Shown here: positions 4,263 through 17,790 of the stretch, in pieces
How the letters are laid out: each line of letters opens with the position of its first letter
Position numbering within the stretch: position 1 is the stretch's first letter
From: an uncultured Eubacteriales bacterium
GTDB lineage: Bacteria; Bacillota; Clostridia; Oscillospirales; CAG-272
Length of the DNA stretch: 64,000 nt
Assembly: GCA_949451655.1 (NCBI GenBank)
Contig: CASTST010000002.1
Span: 2,201 to 66,200 of the forward strand
Direction: 5' to 3'
Made by a program: the position numbers and the translations under genes
The notes under the pieces: generated by a model
What the model saw: only the letters and a program-made list of their open reading frames with translations
What the model was told of the DNA's origin: nothing
Databases searched by the model: none

Positions 4263-6014
4263 ATGAAAAAAATAATGCTTGGCAATGAAGCAGTCGCAAG
4301 AGGACTGTATGAAGCCGGCGTGCGGTTTGTATCCAGTTATCCCGGCACACCCAGCACGGAAATATCTGAATTTGCAGCAAAATATGATGAAATTTACGCA
4401 GAATGGGCGCCAAACGAAAAAGTGGCGCTGGAGTCAGCGCTAGGCGCAAGCTTTGGCGGCGGACGCGCCTTTTCCGCAATGAAGCATGTTGGTCTGAACG
4501 TTGCAGCAGACCCCCTGTTCATCACTGCTTACACCGGCGTCGGCGGCGGGTTCGTCATCGGCGTTGCCGACGATCCGGGAATGCATTCTTCCCAGAATGA
4601 GCAGGACAGCAGACATTACGCCATCGGCGCAAAACTTCCGATGATTGAGCCTGCTGATTCAGCAGAATGCAAAGAATTTGTTAAGCTTGCATATGAACTT
4701 TCCGAACAGTTTGATACCCCCTTCATCCTGCGGCTTACCACCCGTGTGTCCCATTCCGGCGGTGCAGTAGAACTGGAGCAGCGGACGGAAAAACCGGTTT
4801 TGGAATATACAAAAGATCCTGCAAAACGGGTTATGATGCCTGGAAATGCAAAGCGGCGCCATCCTGTTGTGGAACAGCGCCTTGCTGATCTTGCAGAATA
4901 TGCATATCATAGTCCTCTCAACCGGGTGGAAATGGGCGGTACTGCCGTTGGTGTGATTACCGCGGGCAACTGTTACAACTATGCAAAAGAAGTATACGGC
5001 GACAGCGCTTCCTATTTGAAGCTGGGACTGATTCATCCCCTGTCGGAAAAGCAGATCCGCGAATTTGCCGCATCTGTAGATTCTGTTGTGGTTATCGAGG
5101 AACTGGACGGCGTGATCGAAAACTTCTGCCGCTCTCTCGGCATTCAGGTCACCGGTAAAGACGTGCTCCCCCTGTGCGGCGAATATTCCCAGGAGCTGCT
5201 CCGGGAAAAATTGCTGGGCGAGGAACCCTGCACCGTGTCGGTTGCAGACGAAATCCCTGTACGCCCGCCGGTACTATGTCCCGGATGCCCCCACCGCGGT
5301 GTGTTCTATACCTTGAAGAAAATGGGGCTGACCGTATCGGGAGATATCGGCTGTTATACCTTGGGCGCTGTGGCGCCTCTGGGCGCAATGGATACAACCC
5401 TGTGTATGGGCGCGTCCATTTCCGCACTGCACGGATTTAATAAAGTACGCGGAGATGATTCGAAATCTGTAGCCGTAATCGGTGATTCTACGTTCATGCA
5501 TTCCGGCATGACCGGTCTTGTAAATATTATTTACAATGGCGGCGCGTCCACCGTAGTTATTCTGGATAACCGGATCACCGGCATGACCGGGCACCAGCAG
5601 AACCCCCTCACCGGACTTACCCTGAAAAACCAGCCTGCTCCCTATATCTGTCTGGAGGATATCTGCGCCGGACTGGGTGTTGCAAGAGAGCACATTCGTG
5701 TGGTAGATCCTGCCCAGCCTGCCGAACTGGAGAAGGTTCTGAAAGAAGAGCTGGCCGCAGATGCAGCTTCCGTTGTGATCTGCCGCCGTCCCTGCGCCCT
5801 TTTGAAGGGCGTGGAAAAGAAGCCCCCGCTGCGTGTTGACCGGGAAAAGTGCCGGGGCTGCAAAGCGTGCATGAAAATCGGATGTCCCTGCATTTCCATG
5901 GTAGCAGGAGAAGATGGTGTAAAAGCAAAGGTTGACGAGGGCATGTGCGTAGGATGCGGACTTTGTGAACAGATGTGTCCCTTCGATGCATTTTCATCCA
6001 CAACGGAAGAATAA
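4263..6014 (+). CDS. iorA: Indolepyruvate ferredoxin oxidoreductase subunit alpha
   Basis: N-terminus MKKIMLGNEAVARGLYEAGV..SSYPGTPSTEI (pyruvate:ferredoxin OR-type). TPP-binding region GDSTFMHSG. C-terminal two CxxCxxCxxxC ferredoxin motifs (CRGCKACMKIGCP, CVGCGLCEQMCP). Followed by iorB. Confidence 0.85.
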   Translation: MKKIMLGNEAVARGLYEAGVRFVSSYPGTPSTEISEFAAKYDEIYAEWAPNEKVALESALGASFGGGRAFSAMKHVGLNVAADPLFITAYTGVGGGFVIGVADDPGMHSSQNEQDSRHYAIGAKLPMIEPADSAECKEFVKLAYELSEQFDTPFILRLTTRVSHSGGAVELEQRTEKPVLEYTKDPAKRVMMPGNAKRRHPVVEQRLADLAEYAYHSPLNRVEMGGTAVGVITAGNCYNYAKEVYGDSASYLKLGLIHPLSEKQIREFAASVDSVVVIEELDGVIENFCRSLGIQVTGKDVLPLCGEYSQELLREKLLGEEPCTVSVADEIPVRPPVLCPGCPHRGVFYTLKKMGLTVSGDIGCYTLGAVAPLGAMDTTLCMGASISALHGFNKVRGDDSKSVAVIGDSTFMHSGMTGLVNIIYNGGASTVVILDNRITGMTGHQQNPLTGLTLKNQPAPYICLEDICAGLGVAREHIRVVDPAQPAELEKVLKEELAADAASVVICRRPCALLKGVEKKPPLRVDREKCRGCKACMKIGCPCISMVAGEDGVKAKVDEGMCVGCGLCEQMCPFDAFSSTTEE

Positions 6015-6028
6015 CGAGGAAAATAAAT

Positions 6029-6613
6029 ATGACAACAAAAAATATAATGATCGTCGGCGTTGGCGGGCAAGGCTCTCTTCTGGCAAGCAGAATTTTGGGG
6101 GCAGCCGCTACGGCAGGCGGATATGAAGTAAAGATTTCCGAGGTGCATGGCATGAGTCAGCGCGGCGGATCCGTTGTAACGTATGTGCGCTACGGGGAGA
6201 AGGTAAATTCCCCTGTAATTTGTCAGGGAGAAGCAGACGTAATTCTGTCCTTCGAGCTTTTGGAAGCTGCAAGATGGCTGCCATTTCTGAAACCCGGCGG
6301 AACACTGATTACCTCTATCCAGGAAATTAACCCTATGCCGGTTATTATCGGCGCAGCGGAGTATCCGGCAGATTTGGCAGAGAAAATAGATGCGCTGGGC
6401 GTAAATATCATTGCGAAAGACGCCGCTGCTATTGCAGAAGAAGCAGGCAACGTACGGGCAGCTAATGTAGCGCTGATCGGACTTGGCGCCCATGTGCTGG
6501 GCTTTGATGCGGCAGTGCTCCGGGGTGCGGTAGAGGAATGCGTTCCCGCAAAGGCGCGGGAAATCAATCTGCGTGCCTTTGATTTGGCGGCAACACATCA
6601 GGATGTGCAGTAA
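6029..6613 (+). CDS. iorB: Indolepyruvate ferredoxin oxidoreductase subunit beta
   Basis: Starts MTTKNIMIVGVGGQGSLLASRILG (POR gamma-like fold). RBS GAGGAA upstream of ATG 6029. Tightly coupled to iorA. Confidence 0.85.
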   Translation: MTTKNIMIVGVGGQGSLLASRILGAAATAGGYEVKISEVHGMSQRGGSVVTYVRYGEKVNSPVICQGEADVILSFELLEAARWLPFLKPGGTLITSIQEINPMPVIIGAAEYPADLAEKIDALGVNIIAKDAAAIAEEAGNVRAANVALIGLGAHVLGFDAAVLRGAVEECVPAKAREINLRAFDLAATHQDVQ

Positions 6614-7167
6614 TGGTGGATTTGCTTGCATTACAAAAACATTTTATCCTGACCCATCTCAGACCGGGTGATACAGCCTGTGATTTTACTATGGGTAACG
6701 GACACGACACCGCGTTTTTATCCAAAACGGTCGGAGAAACAGGACAGGTTGCGGCATTTGATATTCAGCCTGCTGCTCTGGAAAGTACAGCCCGCCGCTT
6801 GCGGGAGGAAAATTGTCCGAATAACTGGGAGCTGTACTGCCGCTCTCATCATTTGGCAAAGGAATGTGTCCGGGGACCCATACGGGCAGGTATGTTCAAT
6901 TTGGGATATATGCCAGGCAGCGGCAACAAAGCGCTGACCACCATGCGGGAGACAACGCTCCCCGCGGTAGAGAGTGCGCTGTCCATGCTGGGACAGGACA
7001 GTATCCTTATGGTAGCAGTTTATCCGGGGCATCCGGAAGGGGCTGCAGAGGGAGAGGCATTGCAGGCATATTTTGCCACCCTCAGCCGGTACAAGCTGAG
7101 TATTGCAAAATTTCAGATGCTCAATTCTCCCACATCCCCGTATTTTATGATCGCAGAAACAAAGTAG
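6613..7167 (+). CDS. Class I SAM-dependent methyltransferase (YtqB/MnmM-like putative RNA methylase)
   Basis: 184-aa ORF overlapping the iorB stop (TAATG). Motifs DFTMGNGHDTAFL and AFDIQ fit the small rRNA/tRNA methylase family. Confidence 0.7.
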   Translation: MVDLLALQKHFILTHLRPGDTACDFTMGNGHDTAFLSKTVGETGQVAAFDIQPAALESTARRLREENCPNNWELYCRSHHLAKECVRGPIRAGMFNLGYMPGSGNKALTTMRETTLPAVESALSMLGQDSILMVAVYPGHPEGAAEGEALQAYFATLSRYKLSIAKFQMLNSPTSPYFMIAETK

Positions 7168-7190
7168 ATATATAAAAAGCAGTATACAAT

Positions 7191-8384
7191 TTGACTGGGG
7201 GCGAGGCTGTGAACAATAAAACATATGGCTCCCGCCCCGCGTCCCGGGGCTATGTCAACGCGGACGGAACCGTTGTCCGCCCGAAAAAAACCAGCGGGCC
7301 TCCGCCTACAAACGCACCGCAGCATAAGGCGCGGGCAATGTATGGAGCACAGCCTGTACGTCCTGCTGTTCCCCCACGCAGTACGCCGCCCCGTCCGTCG
7401 TCAGCGGCGGCAGGAGGTGCGCAGAGAAAACCTATGCCGCCTCATCCGCAGGCAGGCAGACCTGCTGCACAGCCCCGTCCGGCTGCAAATCCGGGGCAGA
7501 AAAAAAGACCGCCCCAAGGGCAGCGTCCGATGCGTCCGGCCGGGGGGAAACAACCTGTACAAAAACGTGGAACACCCCGTCCGCCCCAGCGCAGGGACAA
7601 ATCCGGATGGATCTATCCGGAAGGCGCTGGAGGGACAAATCCCGCTTCTGATTTTGAACGGTACTACCGACAGCGGCGGCAGGAAGAGCTACGGCGGCAG
7701 CGGCAAAGGCAGGAGCGTGCGCGCCAGGAAGCTCTGCGGCAAAAGAAATTGCGCCGTAAAAAGCGGCTTGCCCAAGTGCGTGGGATATTGGCGCGATTTA
7801 TCATTGTGTTTGCACTCATTTGCGGGATCACTGCGGGGGCATATTTCAAAATATATCACAAGGGTGCTGTAGAAAAATATAACGCCGTAACATTTACTGT
7901 CGGCAAAGACGACACATTTGAAGCCGGCGCTTCCGCGGCATATTATGGCCGCGTGCTGTATACCGATTTCACCCGCTTGGCGTCTTTTCTGGATATGCCC
8001 ATGGCGGGCAGCATCCACTATATGCGCTTTATTATTCCTTCTGAAACGGAAAGCGACAGCGCAGGAAACGGTATGGAGGAAACAGTGCTGTTTACTGTTG
8101 GATCTTCAACGGTCAATATCAATGGTGTCAATATGAACATGACAGGACCCTGCCGACTGATTGGCACATCCATATGGGTGCCCCTCTCATTTGTGGAACA
8201 CTATATGTCCGGCGTTACGGTAAAATATGAAAAATCGGATAAAATTTCTTTGACACGTACCATAGTGGAAGAGGAAAACAATAAGGATAAAAAACAGGAA
8301 GAGAAGAAAACAGAGCCGCTCACCTTCCGGGTGAAACCCCAGAAACCCATTGACCCGGTGGAATATCCGAATGCGGCAACGTAA
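7191..8384 (+). CDS. Membrane-anchored protein with Pro/Arg-rich disordered N-terminus and copper-amine-oxidase-N-like (stalk) C-terminal domain
   Basis: 397 aa. The first 150 aa or so are P/R/Q/A low complexity, followed by an R/K/E/Q charged stretch, one TM segment (FIIVFALICGITAGAYF), then TVNINGVNMNMTGPCRLIGTSIWVPLSFVEHYM resembling Cu_amine_oxidN1. Start codon uncertain (TTG 7191). Confidence 0.6.
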   Translation: MTGGEAVNNKTYGSRPASRGYVNADGTVVRPKKTSGPPPTNAPQHKARAMYGAQPVRPAVPPRSTPPRPSSAAAGGAQRKPMPPHPQAGRPAAQPRPAANPGQKKRPPQGQRPMRPAGGKQPVQKRGTPRPPQRRDKSGWIYPEGAGGTNPASDFERYYRQRRQEELRRQRQRQERARQEALRQKKLRRKKRLAQVRGILARFIIVFALICGITAGAYFKIYHKGAVEKYNAVTFTVGKDDTFEAGASAAYYGRVLYTDFTRLASFLDMPMAGSIHYMRFIIPSETESDSAGNGMEETVLFTVGSSTVNINGVNMNMTGPCRLIGTSIWVPLSFVEHYMSGVTVKYEKSDKISLTRTIVEEENNKDKKQEEKKTEPLTFRVKPQKPIDPVEYPNAAT

Positions 8385-8420
8385 ACCAGAGAATATTCAC
8401 AGGTTGGAAAGGCAAATACA

Positions 8421-8918
8421 TTGACAAATATTGTTTTGATCGGAATGCCCGGCTGCGGAAAGAGCACCGCAGGCGTGCTGCTTGCAAAAACACTTGGATA
8501 CAGCTTTTTGGATACGGATTTGCTGCTCCAGCAAAAGGCTGGAAAAAAGCTGTATGAAATCATCCGGGACGATGGGATGGAAGCATTTCTGAGGTTGGAG
8601 AATGAGACGGTAGCGGCGCTGGGAAATTTGGATAAAACTATAATTGCTACCGGCGGCAGTGTGGTGCTTGGAGAAGCAGCCATGGCGCGGTTGAAAAGTC
8701 TTGGAAAGATTGTTTATCTACAACTCCCCCTTGCACAAATCGAGCATCGGATTTCCAATATCAAAACAAGAGGAATTGCCATGGGTCCCGGAGAAGGACT
8801 GGCAGACGTTTATGCGCATCGGGTTCCTTTATACGAGCGATATGCGGACGTTACTGTGTCTGCACAGGATTTCTCGCTGGAGGAAACTGTGGAAGCAATC
8901 ACGCAAATGGTGATTTGA
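8421..8918 (+). CDS. aroK: Shikimate kinase
   Basis: 165 aa. IVLIGMPGCGKSTAGVLLAKTLGYSFLDTDLL P-loop plus the shikimate-binding pattern. TTG start with an upstream GGAAAGG. Confidence 0.85.
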   Translation: MTNIVLIGMPGCGKSTAGVLLAKTLGYSFLDTDLLLQQKAGKKLYEIIRDDGMEAFLRLENETVAALGNLDKTIIATGGSVVLGEAAMARLKSLGKIVYLQLPLAQIEHRISNIKTRGIAMGPGEGLADVYAHRVPLYERYADVTVSAQDFSLEETVEAITQMVI

Positions 8919-8954
8919 CAGGGTGTCCGTTTGTCCCCCAGAATATTTAGAAGT

Positions 8955-8990
8955 AAAAAAATCAGCCACCTTTCAGTGGCTGATTTTTCT
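8955..8990. terminator. Bidirectional intrinsic terminator
   Basis: Hairpin ATCAGCCAC-CTTTCA-GTGGCTGAT (8961-8984) flanked by an upstream A-run and a downstream T-run. Lies between aroK (+) and the orphan RHS fragment (-). Confidence 0.75.
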
Positions 8991-9142
8991 ATATTAATTG
9001 GCACATTGCGATTGCATTACAGATAAAACAAATTGCACGTATGGAAACCAATACGATGCATAAAAAATGATCCGTTAAACAGGATGGATATTCAAGGCGA
9101 ATGCTTTTTGTCTGTTTCAACGAGTTGGATGCGCCTATTTTG

Positions 9143-10231
9143 CTAACCATTGACATACGTGTACAGATTCAAACTGGTCGAATCAGCTATGCTTCCATCC
9201 AGTATATCCGCATTCATGAACCGCTTCAGCTGCGGATTGTAAAACCGCGTCCGCATGTACAACAGCCCATTGGGATCCGTCAGCACACCGTACTGCCCGT
9301 TGTAGCCGAAGATCAGCTTGCTGTCTCCCGTACGTTCAATCGTGCTTCCGTATGCGTCATACTTCAATGTGTCTGTCACATTGCCATCGATGTCTGTTAC
9401 TGCAACCACACTGCCACGGTAGTCGTAATGGTATACCATGTACTCCCCGTTGCATCGCGACCACAATAGTCCTTCCGTTCCATAGAAATAGCTGGTCTCA
9501 TTCTCATTGTGATCGCTCGTCCAGATCAGCCTGCTTCTTCCTCCCGAGCTGTCATACAGATACTGCATATTCGTATGATAGTAGTACATATTGATTCGGG
9601 TGCCGTCCGCATCATACCAGTATTCGTTATTGTCCCCGTCGATCTTTTTCAGGCGGTTGGTTACGTCATAGCTGATACTCACTTTCTTTCCCTGAATCTT
9701 GCAGGTGGTTGTATTTCCGTTCACCGTCACGCCGATTCCGTCTTCATTCATCTTGCTGATGCTGTTATTCTGATTGTATTTGTACGTGTTTGCTGTCCCA
9801 TCCGGCGTTACTGCTGTCAGGATGTTTCCTGCTGCGTCATAGGTGAAGGTTTCCGTATGAATCGCTTCGTTGGTACGCAAATCATATTCCACGCGCTGCG
9901 TTACCCGTCCCAGACTGTCGTAGGTCATACGGTAGTCTATCATTTCTATGGGATTCAGTTCCGATGTGATTCTTCCCAGCGTGTCATAGGTGAAGATATT
10001 GATAAACAGAATTTTTCCGGTCTTGTCTTTATCCGTCAGGATTTGCAGTCTGCCTGCGTTGTCGTAATTTTTCGTGACGGTTCCGCCGTCAATGTTGTTG
10101 ACTTTCGTAACCTGATTCTGTTTGTTGTACTCGTATGTGGTAGTGCATTCCTCTCCTTCCACTCCGCTGGTCAGCATGTTGTGGTTCGCGTCATAGGTAT
10201 ATACTGCTGCTTCTCCGGTTGCGTGCGTCAT
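9143..10231 (-). pseudogene. Orphan RHS core fragment (toxin-less duplicate of the RHS C-terminal core)
   Basis: The 362-aa ORF is almost identical to residues of the main RHS protein from MTHATGEAAVYTYD to NLYTYVNG. It stops right after YVNG, i.e. before the NPISFVDPFGL motif, and has no toxin tip. It is part of direct repeat 9147..10264. Confidence 0.8.
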
Positions 10232-10264
10232 TTTGCACAGGTTCCCGCAACAGTCGTATTCGTA
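9147..10264. repeat. 1.12-kb direct repeat, copy 1 (offset 2694 bp from copy 2)
   Basis: Aligns base for base with 11841..12958. ORF translations on both strands are identical across the centre. About 15 mismatches, clustered near both ends. Confidence 0.9.
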
Positions 10265-10326
10265 GCGGATGAATATCCAGTGTGTAACGCAGCTTGAAAA
10301 TCAAGCTGCGTTACCAATGTCACTTT

Positions 10327-10980
10327 TTAGGATGAGAAATACTGTTCCAGCATATCTTTTGCCCACTGAATAATTTCTTCTTGTGTATGCTCTGATTCAT
10401 TGAAAGATGACATTTCTGCATCGCTGAAATTACTAAGCGCATATCTTTCCAACAGAGGTCGTATATCATTGCTTTTTTTCTCAGCCAATACTGATCCAAC
10501 CTGATAGATGTAATCAATATTTTCAGTCAAGAGCATATTTGCCATAGCTTCATCAATGGCATTCATATAACCAAGATCATATCCATAAATATCCAAAAAT
10601 AATTTATAGGACCACATATCATAGGTGGAATCAAACCAGCTTAAGTATTTACTACCGTTTACAAAAATAATATGCTCTTGAAATTTATAAAAATTAGTGT
10701 TCCCAAAGTTTCCCAATTCCTCAAATGAGGAAAGTGGATCATCAGGCAGCGTTTCACTTTCTCTATCGGTAAACGAAATACGTCCTTCTAAATAATCACT
10801 ATCAATAATATAGTGGGGATACATTCCGTGCAAGTTCCCGCTGAGATAAATTTCAAAAGTAAGTTTGTCTCCCAACTCTGTTTCTAAATCATAAAATCTA
10901 TGTCTGTTACCACACCCGCTTAAAATAGGCATCAACATTAAGACAAGCAAAATTATCGAAATAGCTTTTTTTATTTTCAA
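10327..10980 (-). CDS. Putative RHS-toxin immunity lipoprotein
   Basis: 217 aa. Signal peptide with a lipobox (LMPILSGCGN). TTG start 1 nt after the RHS stop, with RBS GGAAGG inside the RHS 3' end. Very AT-rich. No recognisable family. Confidence 0.6.
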   Translation of the reverse strand: MKIKKAISIILLVLMLMPILSGCGNRHRFYDLETELGDKLTFEIYLSGNLHGMYPHYIIDSDYLEGRISFTDRESETLPDDPLSSFEELGNFGNTNFYKFQEHIIFVNGSKYLSWFDSTYDMWSYKLFLDIYGYDLGYMNAIDEAMANMLLTENIDYIYQVGSVLAEKKSNDIRPLLERYALSNFSDAEMSSFNESEHTQEEIIQWAKDMLEQYFSS

Positions 10981-10981
10981 A

Positions 10982-13900
10982 TTATCGCCTTCCTGCTTGT
11001 ATTGCTATATATTCTGCAAATCCTTTTGCAACATCCGGATATATGCCTTCGCTATAGGATGAATCAAACATTGTCTTAAATGTATTCGTCAAAAGACCAG
11101 GTGCGAGATATCCCGCGGCACAGCTTTCCAATGCACTTTGACTTCCGTTGAACCCTCTATCCAAAAATAAAGAATATCTAGCTTTGTAACTATCACCATA
11201 ATATGTATCTATTGCTTCATAAATAGGTGTCTCATTCATATAATCTGCAATCAAAAAAGCATCAATGTCGCCAAGCAAATCGCTTTTGGGGAAGGTAGAT
11301 TTATCGCTTTCCATAAAATCCATTACAGCTTGTACAATATCTGAACTAGAAGATATACCAAGGTCTTGCACATTTCCAGCCAACGTAATCAGATCACCTG
11401 CCCAGCCTGCATATGCATTAAAAGCATTATCCAAACTATCATCCAAGCTGAAAGTATAGTAATAATTTGCATTTAAAGTAGCCATCGAATGCACAAAGTC
11501 AATTTCAGCACCAGAAGATGGATCAATAAACACGGCAGTTTTTAAATAATCATACTCATGAAACTGCTCTAAGTACTTTTGCCCTCCTCTGTCAATTGGT
11601 CCTGCTATTACGCTCCATGCTAAACCTTTTGCGGCACTTGCATCATAAAATCTTTTACTAATTATAAACTTCAATACTGCGTCATTTGCATACCTTTGGA
11701 CATAACCGGTATTCTCAGGTGTATTATAATAGGAAAAAGCTAAATTATACAGTCCTTCCAGTCCTGATATTATACTTAAATTATTGCTGTATCCCCGCTC
11801 CGCGCTCAACCCAAAAGGATCCACAAACGAAATCGGGTTCCCATTGACATACGTATACAGATTCAAACTGGTCGAATCCGATATACTTCCATCCAGTATA
11901 TCCGCATTCATGAACCGCTTCAGCTGCGGATTGTAAAACCGCGTCCGCATGTACAACAGCCCATTGGGATCCGTCAGCACACCGTACTGCCCGTTGTAGC
12001 CGAAGATCAGCTTGCTGTCTCCCGTACGTTCAATCGTGCTTCCGTATGCGTCATACTTCAATGTGTCTGTCACATTGCCATCGATGTCTGTTACTGCAAC
12101 CACACTGCCACGGTAGTCGTAATGGTATACCATGTACTCCCCGTTGCATCGCGACCACAATAGTCCTTCCGTTCCATAGAAATAGCTGGTCTCATTCTCA
12201 TTGTGATCGCTCGTCCAGATCAGCCTGCTTCTTCCTCCCGAGCTGTCATACAGATACTGCATATTCGTATGATAGTAGTACATATTGATTCGGGTGCCGT
12301 CCGCATCATACCAGTATTCGTTATTGTCCCCGTCGATCTTTTTCAGGCGGTTGGTTACGTCATAGCTGATACTCACTTTCTTTCCCTGAATCTTGCAGGT
12401 GGTTGTATTTCCGTTCACCGTCACGCCGATTCCGTCTTCATTCATCTTGCTGATGCTGTTATTCTGATTGTATTTGTACGTGTTTGCTGTCCCATCCGGC
12501 GTTACTGCTGTCAGGATGTTTCCTGCTGCGTCATAGGTGAAGGTTTCCGTATGAATCGCTTCGTTGGTACGCAAATCATATTCCACGCGCTGCGTTACCC
12601 GTCCCAGACTGTCGTAGGTCATACGGTAGTCTATCATTTCTATGGGATTCAGTTCCGATGTGATTCTTCCCAGCGTGTCATAGGTGAAGATATTGATAAA
12701 CAGAATTTTTCCGGTCTTGTCTTTATCCGTCAGGATTTGCAGTCTGCCTGCGTTGTCGTAATTTTTCGTGACGGTTCCGCCATCAATATTGTTAACCTTA
12801 GTGACCTGATTCTGTTTATTGTACTCGTATGTGGTAGTGCAGTCCTCTCCTTCCACTCCGCTGGTCAGCATGTTGTGGTTCGCGTCATACGTATATACTG
12901 CTGCTTCTCCGGTTGCGTGCGTCATTTTGCACAGGTTCCCGCAGCAGTCGTATTCGTACCGGACGACTCTACCATAGACATCCGTATACTTTGTTACACG
13001 GTTCAACGCATCATATTCCCGCTTCACCGTTCCGGTCGAATCGGAGGCTGTTAGTACGTTTCCGTTTGCATCGTATGTATATTGGATCGTTCCGGCTCCG
13101 CCGTCCTTTGCCGTGATCCTTCCTGAAAGGTCGTAAGCATACTCCATTTCATAATAGAAGAACCCGGTTACTACGGCATTCAGCAATCCTGCTGCGTTAT
13201 AGTAATAGCTATCCTTGTAGTCTGTATGAGTACTGCCTTTTCTAAACATACGACCGGTGGAATCGTAGGCATATTCTTTTACATGCCCGCCGGGACCTGT
13301 CATAGACGTCAGGTTCCCCATGCCGTCATAAGTAGCATAACTGATTCCGCCCGCTTTGTCAATAGCTGAAATCATCTGACCTGCTCCGTTGTAGGTATAG
13401 GTCGCAGACTGATTCATCGCATTGGTTTCTTTTGTCAGATTGCCTGCCCAGTCATACGCATTGGTGGTTTTACTCCCTGCCGCGTTGGTCACCTGGGTAG
13501 CATTTCCCATGCTGTCATACACTGCCTGATAATCCACATGACCGGATGCATTTGTGATTTTCACAATATTGCCGAGGGCGTCATATTCCTGGGTTATGGT
13601 ATTTCCTTTTGCATCCGTCTGGGCTGTCATTCTACCAAGGGCGTCATACGTATAGGATACCACATGCCCACCGGGATCTTTTGTCGAAACAAGTCGATTC
13701 AAGCTGTCATAAGTATTTGTTGTGATCTGATTCAGCGCATTTGTCACTGTCAGCAGATTGTCTGCTTTGTCATAGGAATACGTTGTTGTATTTCCTCTGG
13801 GGTCGGTGACGATAAGCAGGTTTCCGAAGGCGTCGTATTTGTTGTTTGTTTTGTTGCCCATGGGATCCGTCACATAGATCAAGTCTCCCGCAGTGTTATA

Positions 13901-16744
13901 GGTATATACAGTTTCGCCGCCCTGGGAATTGACAGATTTTATCATCCGGCCATTGTTGTCGTAAGTATAGGAGGTGGTAACAGTAACATTTGTCATTGCC
14001 CAGTCCTCACCCTCATAATCTTCCGGATAATCAAAATCATAGTACGGATCATAAATCGTCAGGGGCTCCTTTGTTTTAGTGAGATTCCCCGCCGCGTCAT
14101 ACTCTTTCAGGATTACGCCGCCTTCTGCGTTTGTCGTTTTAACAACATTATTCGCCGCGTCATACTCGAATGCAGTGGTATTTCCGTCCCGGTCGGTCTG
14201 TTTTATCAGTCTGCCCCCTGCATCATAGGTATTGACTGCGGTTGTGCCATCGGGATAGCTTGTCCGGATCAGTCTGTCCTCGCCGTCATATGCATACCGG
14301 ATCGTTTTACCGTTGGGCAAAATCATAGAAGTCATTTTCAGGTTTCCGTTATAGGTATAGGAAGTGACGTTGCCTTTTGCATCGGTAGACTTCACAAGGC
14401 TGCCGCCTGCATCGTATTCCTTTGCAGTTACATTTCCTGCTGCGTCAGTAACCGTAAGCATATTGCCTTTGTTGTCGTAGGTATAGCTTGTGGTATTGTC
14501 CTGCGCGTCAGTGACAGACATCAAAAATCCGGCTTCATTATACGTTTTGGTTGTTGTTCTTCCCAGAGGATCTGTAACGGTCGTTGGCTGTCCTTTGGTA
14601 TATGCGTACGTAACGGTTCTGCTCGCATAAGATGCCTTGGTAAGCAGATTCTGTGCGTTATACGTATATGTAGTGGTAACGCCCCGCAGATCTTTGCTGG
14701 AGGTCAGCAGGTTTTTACTGTCATAGGTTTTGGTAACAGTGCCGCCGCCGGGGTATTGCACTTTAGTAAGGTTATTTTTTGCATCGTAGGTATATTCGGT
14801 TTTGTTTCCAAGTTTGTCTGTACTGGAAATCAGGTTATCCCGTGTATCGTATACATTTACGATGCTGTTGCCCAGTCCGTCTGTTTTTTTGGTCAGATTT
14901 CCGTGGGAGTCATATGTATATTTTGTTTCCGCGCCGTTCGGATCGGTTTTGCTGATAAGCTGTTTTTTATCATTGTACTTGTATACAGTTGTCTGCATGG
15001 TTCTGTCGGTAACGCTGACCAGCAGATAATCGGGATTTGTTGCTTCATCATAGCGGATGACCGTTTCCGTGTTATCCGCAATTGCGTCCTTCTGACTGAT
15101 TACTCGTCCTGCGCTGTCATAGGTATCTGTGAAATAGATAATACCGTTCTGATCGCGTCCCCGCTCGATCTGTCCCTTTTCGTTATACTGATAAGACAGG
15201 ACTTCTCCGTTTTCATCGGTAATGGAAACAAGATTGCCGTCAATGTATCCCAGCGTACAGGTTCTGCCCGTATTGTCCGTTACAGATGTGATTTTTCCGT
15301 CGCTGTTTTTCGTAAGCTGCATATATCTGCCGGAAACTTCGTCTGTAATTTTTATAGTATTGTTATTGGGATATGTGATCAACGTATTCAATCCGGTTTT
15401 GCCGGTGATTTTTATAAGTCTGCCGTGGTAATCGTAATATTCCGTAGACTGATCGCTGCAGTTTACAACGTAACTGGTATTCAGCCCGTCCGGGATCCTG
15501 GTCGCGGTGTAGTTTTGCTTTGTAACCGTATCGCTTTTAAATACATTGGCATCGGAAGCAGTCTTTTTATACACAGCATAATAGGCGGGACTGTCGTAAA
15601 TATAGAGTGCGTCGCCATCGTCTGCAATTTTCTTTTCAAAATTATGAGACCAGCCCCTGCCCACGGAGCCTTCTGTCAGCACGTTAGAGCGATAGCTGAT
15701 GCCAAAGCTCAGCGTCTGTGCGCCGGAAATGGTCATTAGTGTATGGTCGATCACATGTGCGCCGGTGCTGAGATCAATGAGATCTGCGTGATACTCGTCC
15801 TTCAGGGCAGGCTTTTTCGGTACTTCAACCGGTTCCTTCACTGTTGTATCCTTCGGTGGCGCAACCGCTGTACCGCCGCCGGAAGTCTTTGTAATTACAA
15901 TCGCCTGTTTGCCAAGGGCCGCGTATGCTTTCTCAACACTTGCCTTGGAATAGCCCTGTATTTTCTTTGCCATGGGATCGTTGAAGTAATAGTTGTTTTC
16001 ATCGTATCCAACCAACAAGAGACAGTGAAGCTTATTGTTATATGAAATAGATTCGCCGTCTGGAGTTACCCAGGTGTGCACCTTATATGTAGAAGTCATG
16101 CCGACCGTTGCCCACATAACAACAGGGATCCCTTTGTCAATATAAGTTGTGCATAAATTCTGCAAAGATGTTCCGGATGCATTGGTAGCTTTCACACCTA
16201 TTACATTTTCAAGCTTACCGACAGCTTTCATAATTACAGGAGAGAAGCATCCCCAGCTTTTGTCATTATAACCCGGAAACGGATTTCCCATGTATACTTT
16301 GTTTGGATTGGGTCCGCTGTTTCTTGATGGAGAAGGAGTGCTGGAAGTCCAATCCAAATAGTAGTTTAAAAAAGCCGACAAGCTTATTTTATCCGTACCA
16401 ACGGCATGCTGCAATGCCATAACGGTGCTGGCGCTTTCACAGCCGTTCGGCAGTTTTTCGTTAAACTGATTGATATAGGGGGCATCAATCAGTTTCGCAT
16501 TTTTCGATGGTGTCGGATCCATGCCTTTGCGCTCATAGATACGGATATCCAGCGCCTCAATCTTTTCTTTCGTAGACCAGCCGGCATTGGTTGTACCGGT
16601 ATCAAGAGCACCGGGAAGACCAAACTGATCTTGAATGGCTTCCATAACTGGCGGTTCCCCGTTGCTTGCCCAATCCAGCCACCCTCTGCCGGTAACCTTC
16701 GCGCGGTACATGAGGCGTTGGATTTTGCTGTAAATAACCTTCAT
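10982..16744 (-). CDS. RHS/YD-repeat polymorphic toxin with an N-terminal papain-like (peptidase C39-like) domain
   Basis: 1920 aa. N-terminal ChW-like fragment (YRAKVTGRGWLDWASNGE..IEALDIRIY). C39_2-like domain (PNGCESASTVMAL .. HCLLLVGYD). Pro-rich linker. Dozens of YD repeats (YTYDxxGN..). RHS core end DPNGLLYMRTRFYNPQLKRFMNADILDG..NLYTYVNGNPISFVDPFGL. Then a 274-aa unrecognised C-terminal tip (10985..11806). Confidence 0.9.
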   Translation of the reverse strand: MKVIYSKIQRLMYRAKVTGRGWLDWASNGEPPVMEAIQDQFGLPGALDTGTTNAGWSTKEKIEALDIRIYERKGMDPTPSKNAKLIDAPYINQFNEKLPNGCESASTVMALQHAVGTDKISLSAFLNYYLDWTSSTPSPSRNSGPNPNKVYMGNPFPGYNDKSWGCFSPVIMKAVGKLENVIGVKATNASGTSLQNLCTTYIDKGIPVVMWATVGMTSTYKVHTWVTPDGESISYNNKLHCLLLVGYDENNYYFNDPMAKKIQGYSKASVEKAYAALGKQAIVITKTSGGGTAVAPPKDTTVKEPVEVPKKPALKDEYHADLIDLSTGAHVIDHTLMTISGAQTLSFGISYRSNVLTEGSVGRGWSHNFEKKIADDGDALYIYDSPAYYAVYKKTASDANVFKSDTVTKQNYTATRIPDGLNTSYVVNCSDQSTEYYDYHGRLIKITGKTGLNTLITYPNNNTIKITDEVSGRYMQLTKNSDGKITSVTDNTGRTCTLGYIDGNLVSITDENGEVLSYQYNEKGQIERGRDQNGIIYFTDTYDSAGRVISQKDAIADNTETVIRYDEATNPDYLLVSVTDRTMQTTVYKYNDKKQLISKTDPNGAETKYTYDSHGNLTKKTDGLGNSIVNVYDTRDNLISSTDKLGNKTEYTYDAKNNLTKVQYPGGGTVTKTYDSKNLLTSSKDLRGVTTTYTYNAQNLLTKASYASRTVTYAYTKGQPTTVTDPLGRTTTKTYNEAGFLMSVTDAQDNTTSYTYDNKGNMLTVTDAAGNVTAKEYDAGGSLVKSTDAKGNVTSYTYNGNLKMTSMILPNGKTIRYAYDGEDRLIRTSYPDGTTAVNTYDAGGRLIKQTDRDGNTTAFEYDAANNVVKTTNAEGGVILKEYDAAGNLTKTKEPLTIYDPYYDFDYPEDYEGEDWAMTNVTVTTSYTYDNNGRMIKSVNSQGGETVYTYNTAGDLIYVTDPMGNKTNNKYDAFGNLLIVTDPRGNTTTYSYDKADNLLTVTNALNQITTNTYDSLNRLVSTKDPGGHVVSYTYDALGRMTAQTDAKGNTITQEYDALGNIVKITNASGHVDYQAVYDSMGNATQVTNAAGSKTTNAYDWAGNLTKETNAMNQSATYTYNGAGQMISAIDKAGGISYATYDGMGNLTSMTGPGGHVKEYAYDSTGRMFRKGSTHTDYKDSYYYNAAGLLNAVVTGFFYYEMEYAYDLSGRITAKDGGAGTIQYTYDANGNVLTASDSTGTVKREYDALNRVTKYTDVYGRVVRYEYDCCGNLCKMTHATGEAAVYTYDANHNMLTSGVEGEDCTTTYEYNKQNQVTKVNNIDGGTVTKNYDNAGRLQILTDKDKTGKILFINIFTYDTLGRITSELNPIEMIDYRMTYDSLGRVTQRVEYDLRTNEAIHTETFTYDAAGNILTAVTPDGTANTYKYNQNNSISKMNEDGIGVTVNGNTTTCKIQGKKVSISYDVTNRLKKIDGDNNEYWYDADGTRINMYYYHTNMQYLYDSSGGRSRLIWTSDHNENETSYFYGTEGLLWSRCNGEYMVYHYDYRGSVVAVTDIDGNVTDTLKYDAYGSTIERTGDSKLIFGYNGQYGVLTDPNGLLYMRTRFYNPQLKRFMNADILDGSISDSTSLNLYTYVNGNPISFVDPFGLSAERGYSNNLSIISGLEGLYNLAFSYYNTPENTGYVQRYANDAVLKFIISKRFYDASAAKGLAWSVIAGPIDRGGQKYLEQFHEYDYLKTAVFIDPSSGAEIDFVHSMATLNANYYYTFSLDDSLDNAFNAYAGWAGDLITLAGNVQDLGISSSSDIVQAVMDFMESDKSTFPKSDLLGDIDAFLIADYMNETPIYEAIDTYYGDSYKARYSLFLDRGFNGSQSALESCAAGYLAPGLLTNTFKTMFDSSYSEGIYPDVAKGFAEYIAIQAGRR
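11841..12958. repeat. 1.12-kb direct repeat, copy 2 (inside the main RHS gene)
   Basis: Counterpart of 9147..10264. Homology begins exactly at the codons for YVNG, just upstream of the DPFGL boundary. Confidence 0.9.
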
Positions 16745-16746
16745 TT

Positions 16747-17473
16747 GATTGACATAAACCCATGCAAAGGTGTTAAAACTCCAAAAGTATTACCGCCATC
16801 CATTAAAGTCTACACAGATACACATCAGCACCAGATAGAAAAAGCTGCGCTTGAGCACGAAAATGTAAATGCACTTATGGTGTTGATAGATTTGTATACC
16901 GGTTTAAGAATTGGGGAATTGTGCGGCTTAAAGTGGAGCGATTTTGGAAGGGATAAAGAATATTTTGATATTCACCGCATTATCGAACGGCTGAAAATTC
17001 AATGGGCTGAAAACCGCAGCGATTATCAAAGGATTTCTCTTATCAGTGCCCAACCGAACAGCAGCACTGCATTATATATTGGCACACCGAAGACCGAGCA
17101 GGGGAAGCGTAGAATATATACTTCCAGCCAAGCCGTTTTGGGATTTGAAAGGATAGAATCCTATCAAAAGAATAATGAAACTTATCGGGAAAATGGTTTT
17201 GTTTTTCTGCAAAGAAACGGGAATCCATATGAACCCAAGGCGTACAATGACCTGTATCGAGATGTTTTAAAATGCGCTGATGTTGACTACCGAAACTTTC
17301 ACACGCTGCGGCATACGTTCGCCACACGTGCATATGAGTTGGCATTCGACATTCCTACTTTATCAGAAATACTGGGGCATGCGCAAAAATCCACTACGGA
17401 AAACATGTACGGACATTCACTGGACGACACCAAAAAGAAAGCTATGACAAAGTTCAACAGAGGATTTTTATAA
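16747..17473 (+). pseudogene. 5'-truncated tyrosine recombinase (phage-integrase family) fragment
   Basis: Readable only from ..IDINPCKGVKTPK (end of the core-binding domain) through the catalytic domain (LYTGLRIGELCGLKWSDF, HTLRHTFATRAYE, LGHAQKSTTENMYGH). No N-terminal domain, and no plausible start or RBS. Upstream sequence is the antisense of the RHS 5' end. Confidence 0.75.
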
Positions 17474-17595: not shown

Positions 17596-17673
<78 letters not shown>

Positions 17674-17701
17674 ATATTGATTTGTAATAGATTCCTGCCG
17701 T

Positions 17702-17790
17702 TGGTGCCGGAAACCGGAATCGAACCGGTACGCGACTTTCGTCGCATTGGATTTTAAGTCCAAGGCGTCTACCTATTCCGCCATTCCGGC
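17702..17790 (-). tRNA. tRNA-Leu (anticodon TAA)
   Basis: The reverse complement reads GCCGGAATGGCGGAATAGGTAGACGCCTTGGACTTAAAATCCAATGCGACGAAAGTCGCGTACCGGTTCGATTCCGGTTTCCGGCACCA. It has a long variable arm and anticodon loop CT-TAA-AA. Confidence 0.9.

Follow-up and report, generated by a model that had tools for sequence, protein, structure and literature searches.

A Gram-positive Rhs protein with a toxin tip most likely of the Prok-TelC family and a candidate lipoprotein antidote

An rhs gene on the minus strand of a 64,000-nucleotide (nt) stretch of contig CASTST010000002.1 from an uncultured Eubacteriales bacterium (hereafter the window) encodes a protein with a 274-amino-acid (aa) C-terminal toxin tip and is followed by the gene for a 217-aa lipoprotein. 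The tip is most likely a member of the published Prok-TelC family of the Lipocone superfamily, the founding member of which is TelC of Streptococcus intermedius B196 (PDB 5UKH; Whitney et al. 2017, PMC5555719). As predicted from sequence, it is probably a secreted lipid II phosphatase that would act outside the membrane and be blocked by the downstream lipoprotein. A preliminary description of the same DNA had taken the tip for an unrecognised toxin domain; it instead matches a known toxin family confidently, in a profile search that reached TelC, and this match is joined by a Foldseek search, by the PF27189 label of homologues and by the published Prok-TelC list. The fusion of Rhs and TelC is already catalogued (PMC12419801) and the toxin itself is a known family, so that the toxin is ordinary and the antidote family alone looks undescribed. 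The features are listed in Table 1.

The tip had no match at E ≤ 1 in the local Pfam and NCBIfam libraries, in agreement with the earlier statement that it carries no classic nuclease, deaminase, ADP-ribosyltransferase or peptidase signature; the PF27189 model was not part of the local Pfam copy. In a large protein collection, 12 close homologues of the tip were found, 11 of them labelled PF27189, a family that bears the name 'YkzU', and literature searches on 'PF27189' and 'YkzU' yielded nothing relevant. An exhaustive phmmer search for relatives returned 273 cluster representatives at E ≤ 1e-3. When a profile of 38 homologues cut to the tip was run with hmmsearch against all PDB sequences, TelC (5UKH_A) was matched at E 4.9e-14 with 55.7 bits, and the next match stood at E 0.87. 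The match consisted of three colinear stretches, in which the motifs W..AG, DF(V/T)H, AGW(A/E)GD, D...D.D..NI and YY...R..F were aligned. The tip and TelC are accordingly homologous, with W..AG, DF.H, AGW.GD, D...D.D and YY...R common to both.

The AlphaFold2 model of the tip, built on the close homologues, reached a predicted local distance difference test (pLDDT) score of 87 and a predicted template modelling (pTM) score of 0.84, and consisted of helices and one beta-hairpin (residues 92-103). TelC is described as largely helical, likewise with a single beta-hairpin (PMC5555719). In the Foldseek search against the PDB, a check that the preliminary description had proposed, 5UKH was the sole credible match to the tip model (probability 0.98), all others having a probability ≤ 0.10.

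Fourteen positions were near- or fully invariant in about 150 relatives, namely, W64, G69, D103, H106, W135, G137, D138, F172, D176, D180, D182, Y202, Y203, and R210, and the tip keeps all of them. H106 (in DFVH), D138 (in GWAGD), and D176 (in SDLLGDID) are invariant and were aligned with DFTH, GWEGD, and DDYKADLD of TelC. The catalytic centre of Prok-TelC comprises a His on helix H2, an Asp on H3 and an Asp on H4 (PMC12419801), and the placing of H106, D138, and D176 on helices H2-H4 follows that description by alignment. A further signature of the TelC family is an Asp that lies six residues past the catalytic Asp of helix 4 and pairs with a conserved Arg of the C-terminal helical extension (PMC12419801). 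D182 (D176 + 6) and R210 did not vary among the 38 sequences, both align with TelC, and this TelC-specific feature is matched in the tip by D176, D182, and R210. Under an assumed tag offset, D401 of TelC, the site of the published inactivating mutation, would tentatively fall on the Asp of DFTH, the counterpart of D103 in the tip. Compared with the family, the tip therefore keeps the H2 His, the H3 Asp, the H4 Asp, the +6 Asp and the C-terminal Arg.

TelC was placed in the Lipocone superfamily by Burroughs, Nicastro, and Aravind (2025, PMC12419801). Their supplementary Prok-TelC list holds 90 sequences with GWAGDL, and their network file records the fusions PGBD-Rv2525c-Prok-TelC (183 cases), SH3-Prok-TelC (42), and RHS-Prok-TelC (10). 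One sequence of the published list, WP_064221346.1, is near-identical to one phmmer relative of the tip, and the phmmer relatives include proteins with PG_binding_1, Rv2525c-like and C-terminal domains, an architecture assigned to Prok-TelC in the same work. In a Pfam domain census of 84 longer tip relatives, Rv2525c-like was found in 20 and PG_binding_1 in 18, and Amidase_2, M23, VWA, Ig, and RHS were less frequent. An alignment-based locus search returned seven distant loci from Planococcus, Clostridia, and Streptomyces.

TelC has two helical lobes with a groove between them, where Ca2+ is bound by an Asp-rich motif, and toxicity is lost when these Ca2+-binding residues are mutated; the enzyme is a Ca2+-dependent phosphatase that hydrolyses the undecaprenyl phosphoester bond of lipid II, with undecaprenyl pyrophosphate as a further substrate, and its toxicity is confined to export outside the cytoplasm, at the outer face of the cytoplasmic membrane (PMC5555719). 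The TelC immunity protein TipC is membrane-anchored and outward-facing (PMC6193138), and its family is marked by a crescent-shaped alpha/beta domain next to the anchor. The tip and TelC are alike in being paired with such a protein, here a candidate, and a membrane-anchored, outward-facing immunity partner implies action outside the membrane. They differ in the carrier, which for TelC is an LXG domain with type VII export and here is an Rhs shell with DPFGL whose orthologues are Sec-signalled, and in the partner, which here is a lipoprotein of another family and not TipC. No LXG domain, which in type VII secreted toxins is N-terminal and goes with WXG100 partners, was present, the Pfam scan of the whole Rhs protein returning only RHS_repeat and DUF6531.

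In the proposed mechanism, the Rhs shell would enclose the tip, and the DPFGL aspartyl-protease motif would cleave and free it. The freed tip may then reach the space between wall and membrane of a neighbouring Gram-positive cell and would there destroy lipid II and the recycled carrier undecaprenyl pyrophosphate on the outer membrane face, whereby wall synthesis would be halted. The lipoprotein, presumably tethered outside the producer's own membrane, would bind the toxin and protect the producer. Omp85 was not found in the window's own genome (89% complete), which is consistent with a single-membrane cell. What had been an "unknown toxin" thereby becomes a testable prediction, a lipid II/undecaprenyl-pyrophosphate phosphatase carried by a Gram-positive Rhs protein. 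Published assays for the predicted activity exist (thin-layer chromatography and high-performance liquid chromatography [TLC/HPLC], PMC5892711), and H106, D138, D176, D180, and D182 are candidates for mutation. For annotation, Rhs tips with lipoprotein partners and no match in older Pfam can be members of the TelC family.

Several points weigh against a TelC-like lipid II phosphatase. TelC was reached by the family profile of 38 homologues and not by the tip sequence by itself, a single-sequence phmmer search of the PDB giving only a chance match to a terpene synthase at E 0.75. The structural superposition of tip and TelC is modest (template modelling [TM] score 0.42, Foldseek E 0.07), and the clustering of Asp and His residues proposed for the tip follows from the alignment with TelC, not from model coordinates. 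The Rhs-borne clade departs from most relatives, with L185 in place of the consensus N and P173 in place of the S of the wider clade. Activity was assayed for TelC itself only, and the choice of substrate within the family may vary (PMC12419801). The immunity role of the lipoprotein is drawn from its position, lipobox and co-occurrence with TelC-like tips, with no similarity to TipC. Finally, the rhs gene in the window has no signal peptide, and delivery in this strain is doubtful.

The empty local Pfam and NCBIfam searches and the single-sequence phmmer search, which returned nothing meaningful from the PDB, would suit the view of the preliminary description that the tip is a new kind of toxin unrelated to any described family. 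This is very improbable, being already refuted by the TelC profile match; TelC was also the top Foldseek match, the homologues carry PF27189 labels and relatives stand in the Prok-TelC list.

Lipocone substrates are predicted to be diverse, and toxin members may hit other lipids (PMC12419801); other targets of TelC could not be excluded by Whitney et al. (PMC5555719). With about 17% identity to TelC in the Foldseek alignment and off-consensus residues at positions 173 and 185, the tip could have the TelC fold and catalytic centre and act on another lipid-linked substrate, such as undecaprenyl-linked teichoic-acid or capsule intermediates or phospholipid head groups. Such a shift is unlikely, since every residue invariant between TelC and the tip family is kept, and the fusion partners of the relatives are peptidoglycan-directed (PG_binding_1, Rv2525c-like, Amidase_2, and M23), which points to the wall-synthesis pathway.

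An all-helical toxin that inserts into the membrane or forms pores was also considered, the model being almost wholly alpha-helical and a surface-exposed immunity protein being suited to a membrane toxin as well. The tip is of the soluble type, with a maximum Kyte-Doolittle value of 0.8 over 19 aa, no hydrophobic segment, an acidic isoelectric point (pI) of 4.3 and a grand average of hydropathy (GRAVY) of -0.16. The invariant residues are polar and of catalytic type (His, Asp, and Arg), not of glycine-zipper or hydrophobic character, and the domain is homologous to an enzyme, TelC. On these grounds, a pore-forming tip is extremely improbable.

The predicted lipid II phosphatase shares its target with the colicin M family (PMC5821083), in which the cut in lipid II similarly separates the lipid carrier from its pyrophosphoryl head group, and in both cases the immunity protein stands outside the cytoplasm, here by prediction. 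Fold and motifs are unrelated. Colicin_M was not matched in Pfam at E ≤ 1, and no colicin M chain was found among the profile matches in the PDB at E ≤ 10 or among the 50 listed Foldseek matches.

The protein of the window shows the features of Rhs polymorphic toxins: RHS/YD repeats, a core with the DPxGL motif, a variable tip and an immunity gene downstream. From the N terminus, the ORF (open reading frame) encodes a partial ChW-like repeat, a C39-like peptidase, DUF6531, about 22 RHS repeats (PF05593, E 6.5e-146 in the Pfam scan), the Rhs core and the TelC-like tip. The core ends with ...YVNGNPISFVDPFGL, DPFGL being residues 1642-1646 of the 1920-aa protein, and the tip, SAERGYSNN...AGRR, comprises the 274 residues after it (residues 1647-1920). 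The boundaries that the preliminary description gave for the tip, 274 aa after DPFGL at 10985-11806, proved exact on re-derivation, and its canonical cleavage motif at the end of the shell was borne out by the TIGR03696 match, which ends there. A C39-like peptidase domain is encoded by two more ORFs of the window's own genome that lie outside the window (G000:C75:2852-3481 and G000:C23:16732-17334, 37-41% identity), one of which has an in-frame TAA.

Table 1. Features of the rhs locus, with positions in the window
Feature	Position	Strand	Remarks
rhs ORF	10982-16744	minus	1920 aa; no signal peptide
C39-like cysteine peptidase domain	15875..16510	minus	residues 79-290; 3ERV 'putative C39-like peptidase', E 7e-16
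DUF6531, small Rhs header domain	15596..15784	minus	residues 321-383; Pfam E 1.1e-10
Rhs-associated core with DPFGL autoproteolysis motif at its end	11807..12055	minus	residues 1564-1646; TIGR03696 E 1.6e-17
Toxin tip, most likely TelC-like (Prok-TelC / Lipocone)	10985..11806	minus	274 aa
Codon D103	11498-11500	minus	
Codon H106	11489-11491	minus	
Codon D138	11393-11395	minus	
Codon D176	11279-11281	minus	
Codon D180	11267-11269	minus	
Codon D182	11261-11263	minus	
Codon R210	11177-11179	minus	
Immunity candidate, 217-aa lipoprotein	10327..10980	minus	TTG start one nt past the rhs stop; signal peptide and lipobox MKIKKAISIILLVLMLMPILSG followed by C
Repeat copy A	11841..12963	minus	in the rhs core just before NPISFVDPFGL; 1123-bp direct repeat
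Repeat copy B	9147..10269	minus	orphan rhs core fragment, ORF 9143-10231, ends ...LYTYVNG and a stop
Breakpoint	16700..16760		congeneric rhs homology from about 16711-16713; tyrosine-recombinase remnant beyond

Together, tip and lipoprotein gene make up a toxin-immunity module of low GC content that was swapped horizontally, as had been suggested in the preliminary description; GC content, GC at third codon positions (GC3) and the flanking repeats support it. The sharp drop in composition noted there at the tip boundary was confirmed, with GC content falling from 46.6% (core) to 37.5% (tip) and 33.6% (immunity ORF, 10327-10980) and with GC3 values of 0.53, 0.28, and 0.32, respectively. In a two-segment likelihood analysis, the composition changed at window position 11786, 20 nt from the DPFGL boundary. 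NPISFVDPFGL, tip and immunity gene make up a module at 10270-11840 with 36% GC in an rhs core of 47-48% GC, into which it would have been acquired by recombination. Repeat copies A and B lie on either side, so that the module is flanked by 1123-bp direct repeats; the two copies share 98.66% identity, with 15 mismatches and no gaps over 1123 bp. The orphan core of copy B lacks DPFGL as well as a tip and an immunity gene.

The 217-aa lipoprotein is likely the antidote of the TelC-like tip. Its TTG start is supported by homologues, which begin MKKAIS. The family is rare, with only six close relatives in the large protein collection; of 301 genomes sampled from the order, 3 were found to have it. 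At other loci, homologues of the lipoprotein come directly after TelC-like tips, as would be expected of a cognate partner. At a metagenomic locus (L013), an Rhs C terminus with a TelC-like tip 45% identical to that of the window is followed by a lipoprotein homologue, and an orphan TelC-like tip (50% identical to the window tip) likewise precedes one; the two homologues are 29% and 36% identical to the window lipoprotein. In a complete genome from another family of the same order (G063), five membrane-anchored paralogues of the lipoprotein are interspersed with three TelC-like tips.

No Pfam, NCBIfam or PDB sequence match of the lipoprotein was found, including in two profile searches of PDB sequences. 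Its AlphaFold2 model (pLDDT 84) begins with eight strands and continues with five helices, and Foldseek against the PDB gave no match at E ≤ 0.001, with neither TipC2 nor BamE among the best 50 of 248 matches (E ≤ 10). The partners named for Prok-TelC are TipC, ZU5/vWA, 4TM, and some BamE-like proteins (PMC12419801); in comparison with that family, the partner lipoprotein here is unmatched to any solved partner family. A relationship to TipC had no support from Foldseek, among the matches listed, or from the two profile searches, the membrane anchor (lipobox) being present. A BamE-like fold was rejected as well, the order of strands and then helices misfitting the published description (PMC12419801) and BamE being absent from the 50 listed matches.

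It is tentatively proposed, at close to an even chance, that the lipoprotein founds a previously undescribed TelC immunity family, unrelated to TipC and recruited independently by Rhs-borne and by SH3/carboxypeptidase-borne tips. No link from this family to TipC or to any solved structure was detected, and it may be catalogued under another name in the data of PMC12419801. If the proposal is true, no fewer than two unrelated protein folds at the cell surface can block TelC-like enzymes. The partner lipoprotein family is a modest new element that could show a second way to neutralise a TelC-type enzyme.

As assembled, the rhs gene is truncated at its 5' end. DNA homology to rhs orthologues of the same genus sets in at about 16711-16713, and the ATG at 16744 lies just beyond. 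The opposite strand beyond the breakpoint carries a tyrosine-recombinase remnant without its N-terminal part, beside tRNA-Met and tRNA-Leu. At window positions 16700-17473, the rhs and tyrosine-recombinase genes, each without its 5' part, abut head-to-head, and the tRNAs lie at 17596-17790. This junction is the scar of a deletion or rearrangement, or else a mis-join in the assembly, which is a fragmented draft (251 contigs); no second copy of the missing rhs 5' part was found in it.

The orthologues in two genomes of the same genus, G002 (2381-aa frame; locus L024, G002:C17:7000-17000) and G012 (2813-aa frame; locus L023, G012:C37:36000-48500), have Sec signal peptides of the MKK...AAAAAS type and 2-4 tandem modules of about 170 aa, each with a ChW-like segment, ahead of the C39-like peptidase. 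Past DPFGL, neither tip is related to that of the window, which confirms polymorphism. No signal peptide was found in the window Rhs ORF, the start of which falls inside a repeat. With rhs homology only from about 16713 and the signal peptide and repeats gone, the gene is without an export signal as assembled, and the toxin may no longer be exported. We know of no description of a Gram-positive Rhs carrier with ChW-like repeats and a C39-like peptidase.

These losses raise the possibility that what remains of the locus in this strain is a decaying relic, with a toxin neither exported nor used and an immunity gene that perhaps still protects against TelC-like toxins of neighbours. The gene lacks the Sec signal and the repeat modules of both orthologues, adjoins the truncated integrase remnant and has a tipless orphan core copy downstream, and its missing 5' part has no second copy in the assembly. 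Against this, the frame of 1920 codons is intact and without stops, as are the tip and the immunity gene, and in the draft assembly the junction could be a mis-join. A relic is plausible, at somewhat below an even chance. It concerns present-day function, not domain identity, and is compatible with the tip being a TelC-like lipid II phosphatase.

WapA of Bacillus subtilis is one of the Gram-positive, Sec-exported Rhs/YD-repeat toxins; the tips of WapA are tRNases that work in the cytoplasm, with cytoplasmic immunity proteins. The system of the window resembles these toxins in its large YD/Rhs-repeat carrier, which has Sec signals in the orthologues, its wall-binding repeats, exchangeable tip, immunity gene and downstream orphan fragments. 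It differs from WapA in that its tip is predicted to act outside the membrane and that its carrier adds a C39-like peptidase domain.

Further arrangements were observed at the loci with TelC-like tips or lipoprotein homologues. Two TelC-like tips stand in succession at positions 5146-9583 of the metagenomic locus L013, the orphan one with a frameshifted end, and more unrelated tips and immunity-like small ORFs lie upstream of them. In the complete genome G063, one locus (L025, G063:C1:1340500-1355500) encodes a secreted protein of 1336 aa that combines SH3 and M14-like carboxypeptidase domains with a TelC-like tip at its end, followed by two orphan TelC-like tips, and an IS66-like transposase is found at the end of the locus. 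On the two contigs with P0166 (L001 and L002), a lipoprotein homologue of 42% identity is embedded in small-ORF arrays, where no neighbouring gene was called as a TelC-like toxin; on one of the contigs an IS110 transposase adjoins it. This homologue has the look of an orphan immunity gene.

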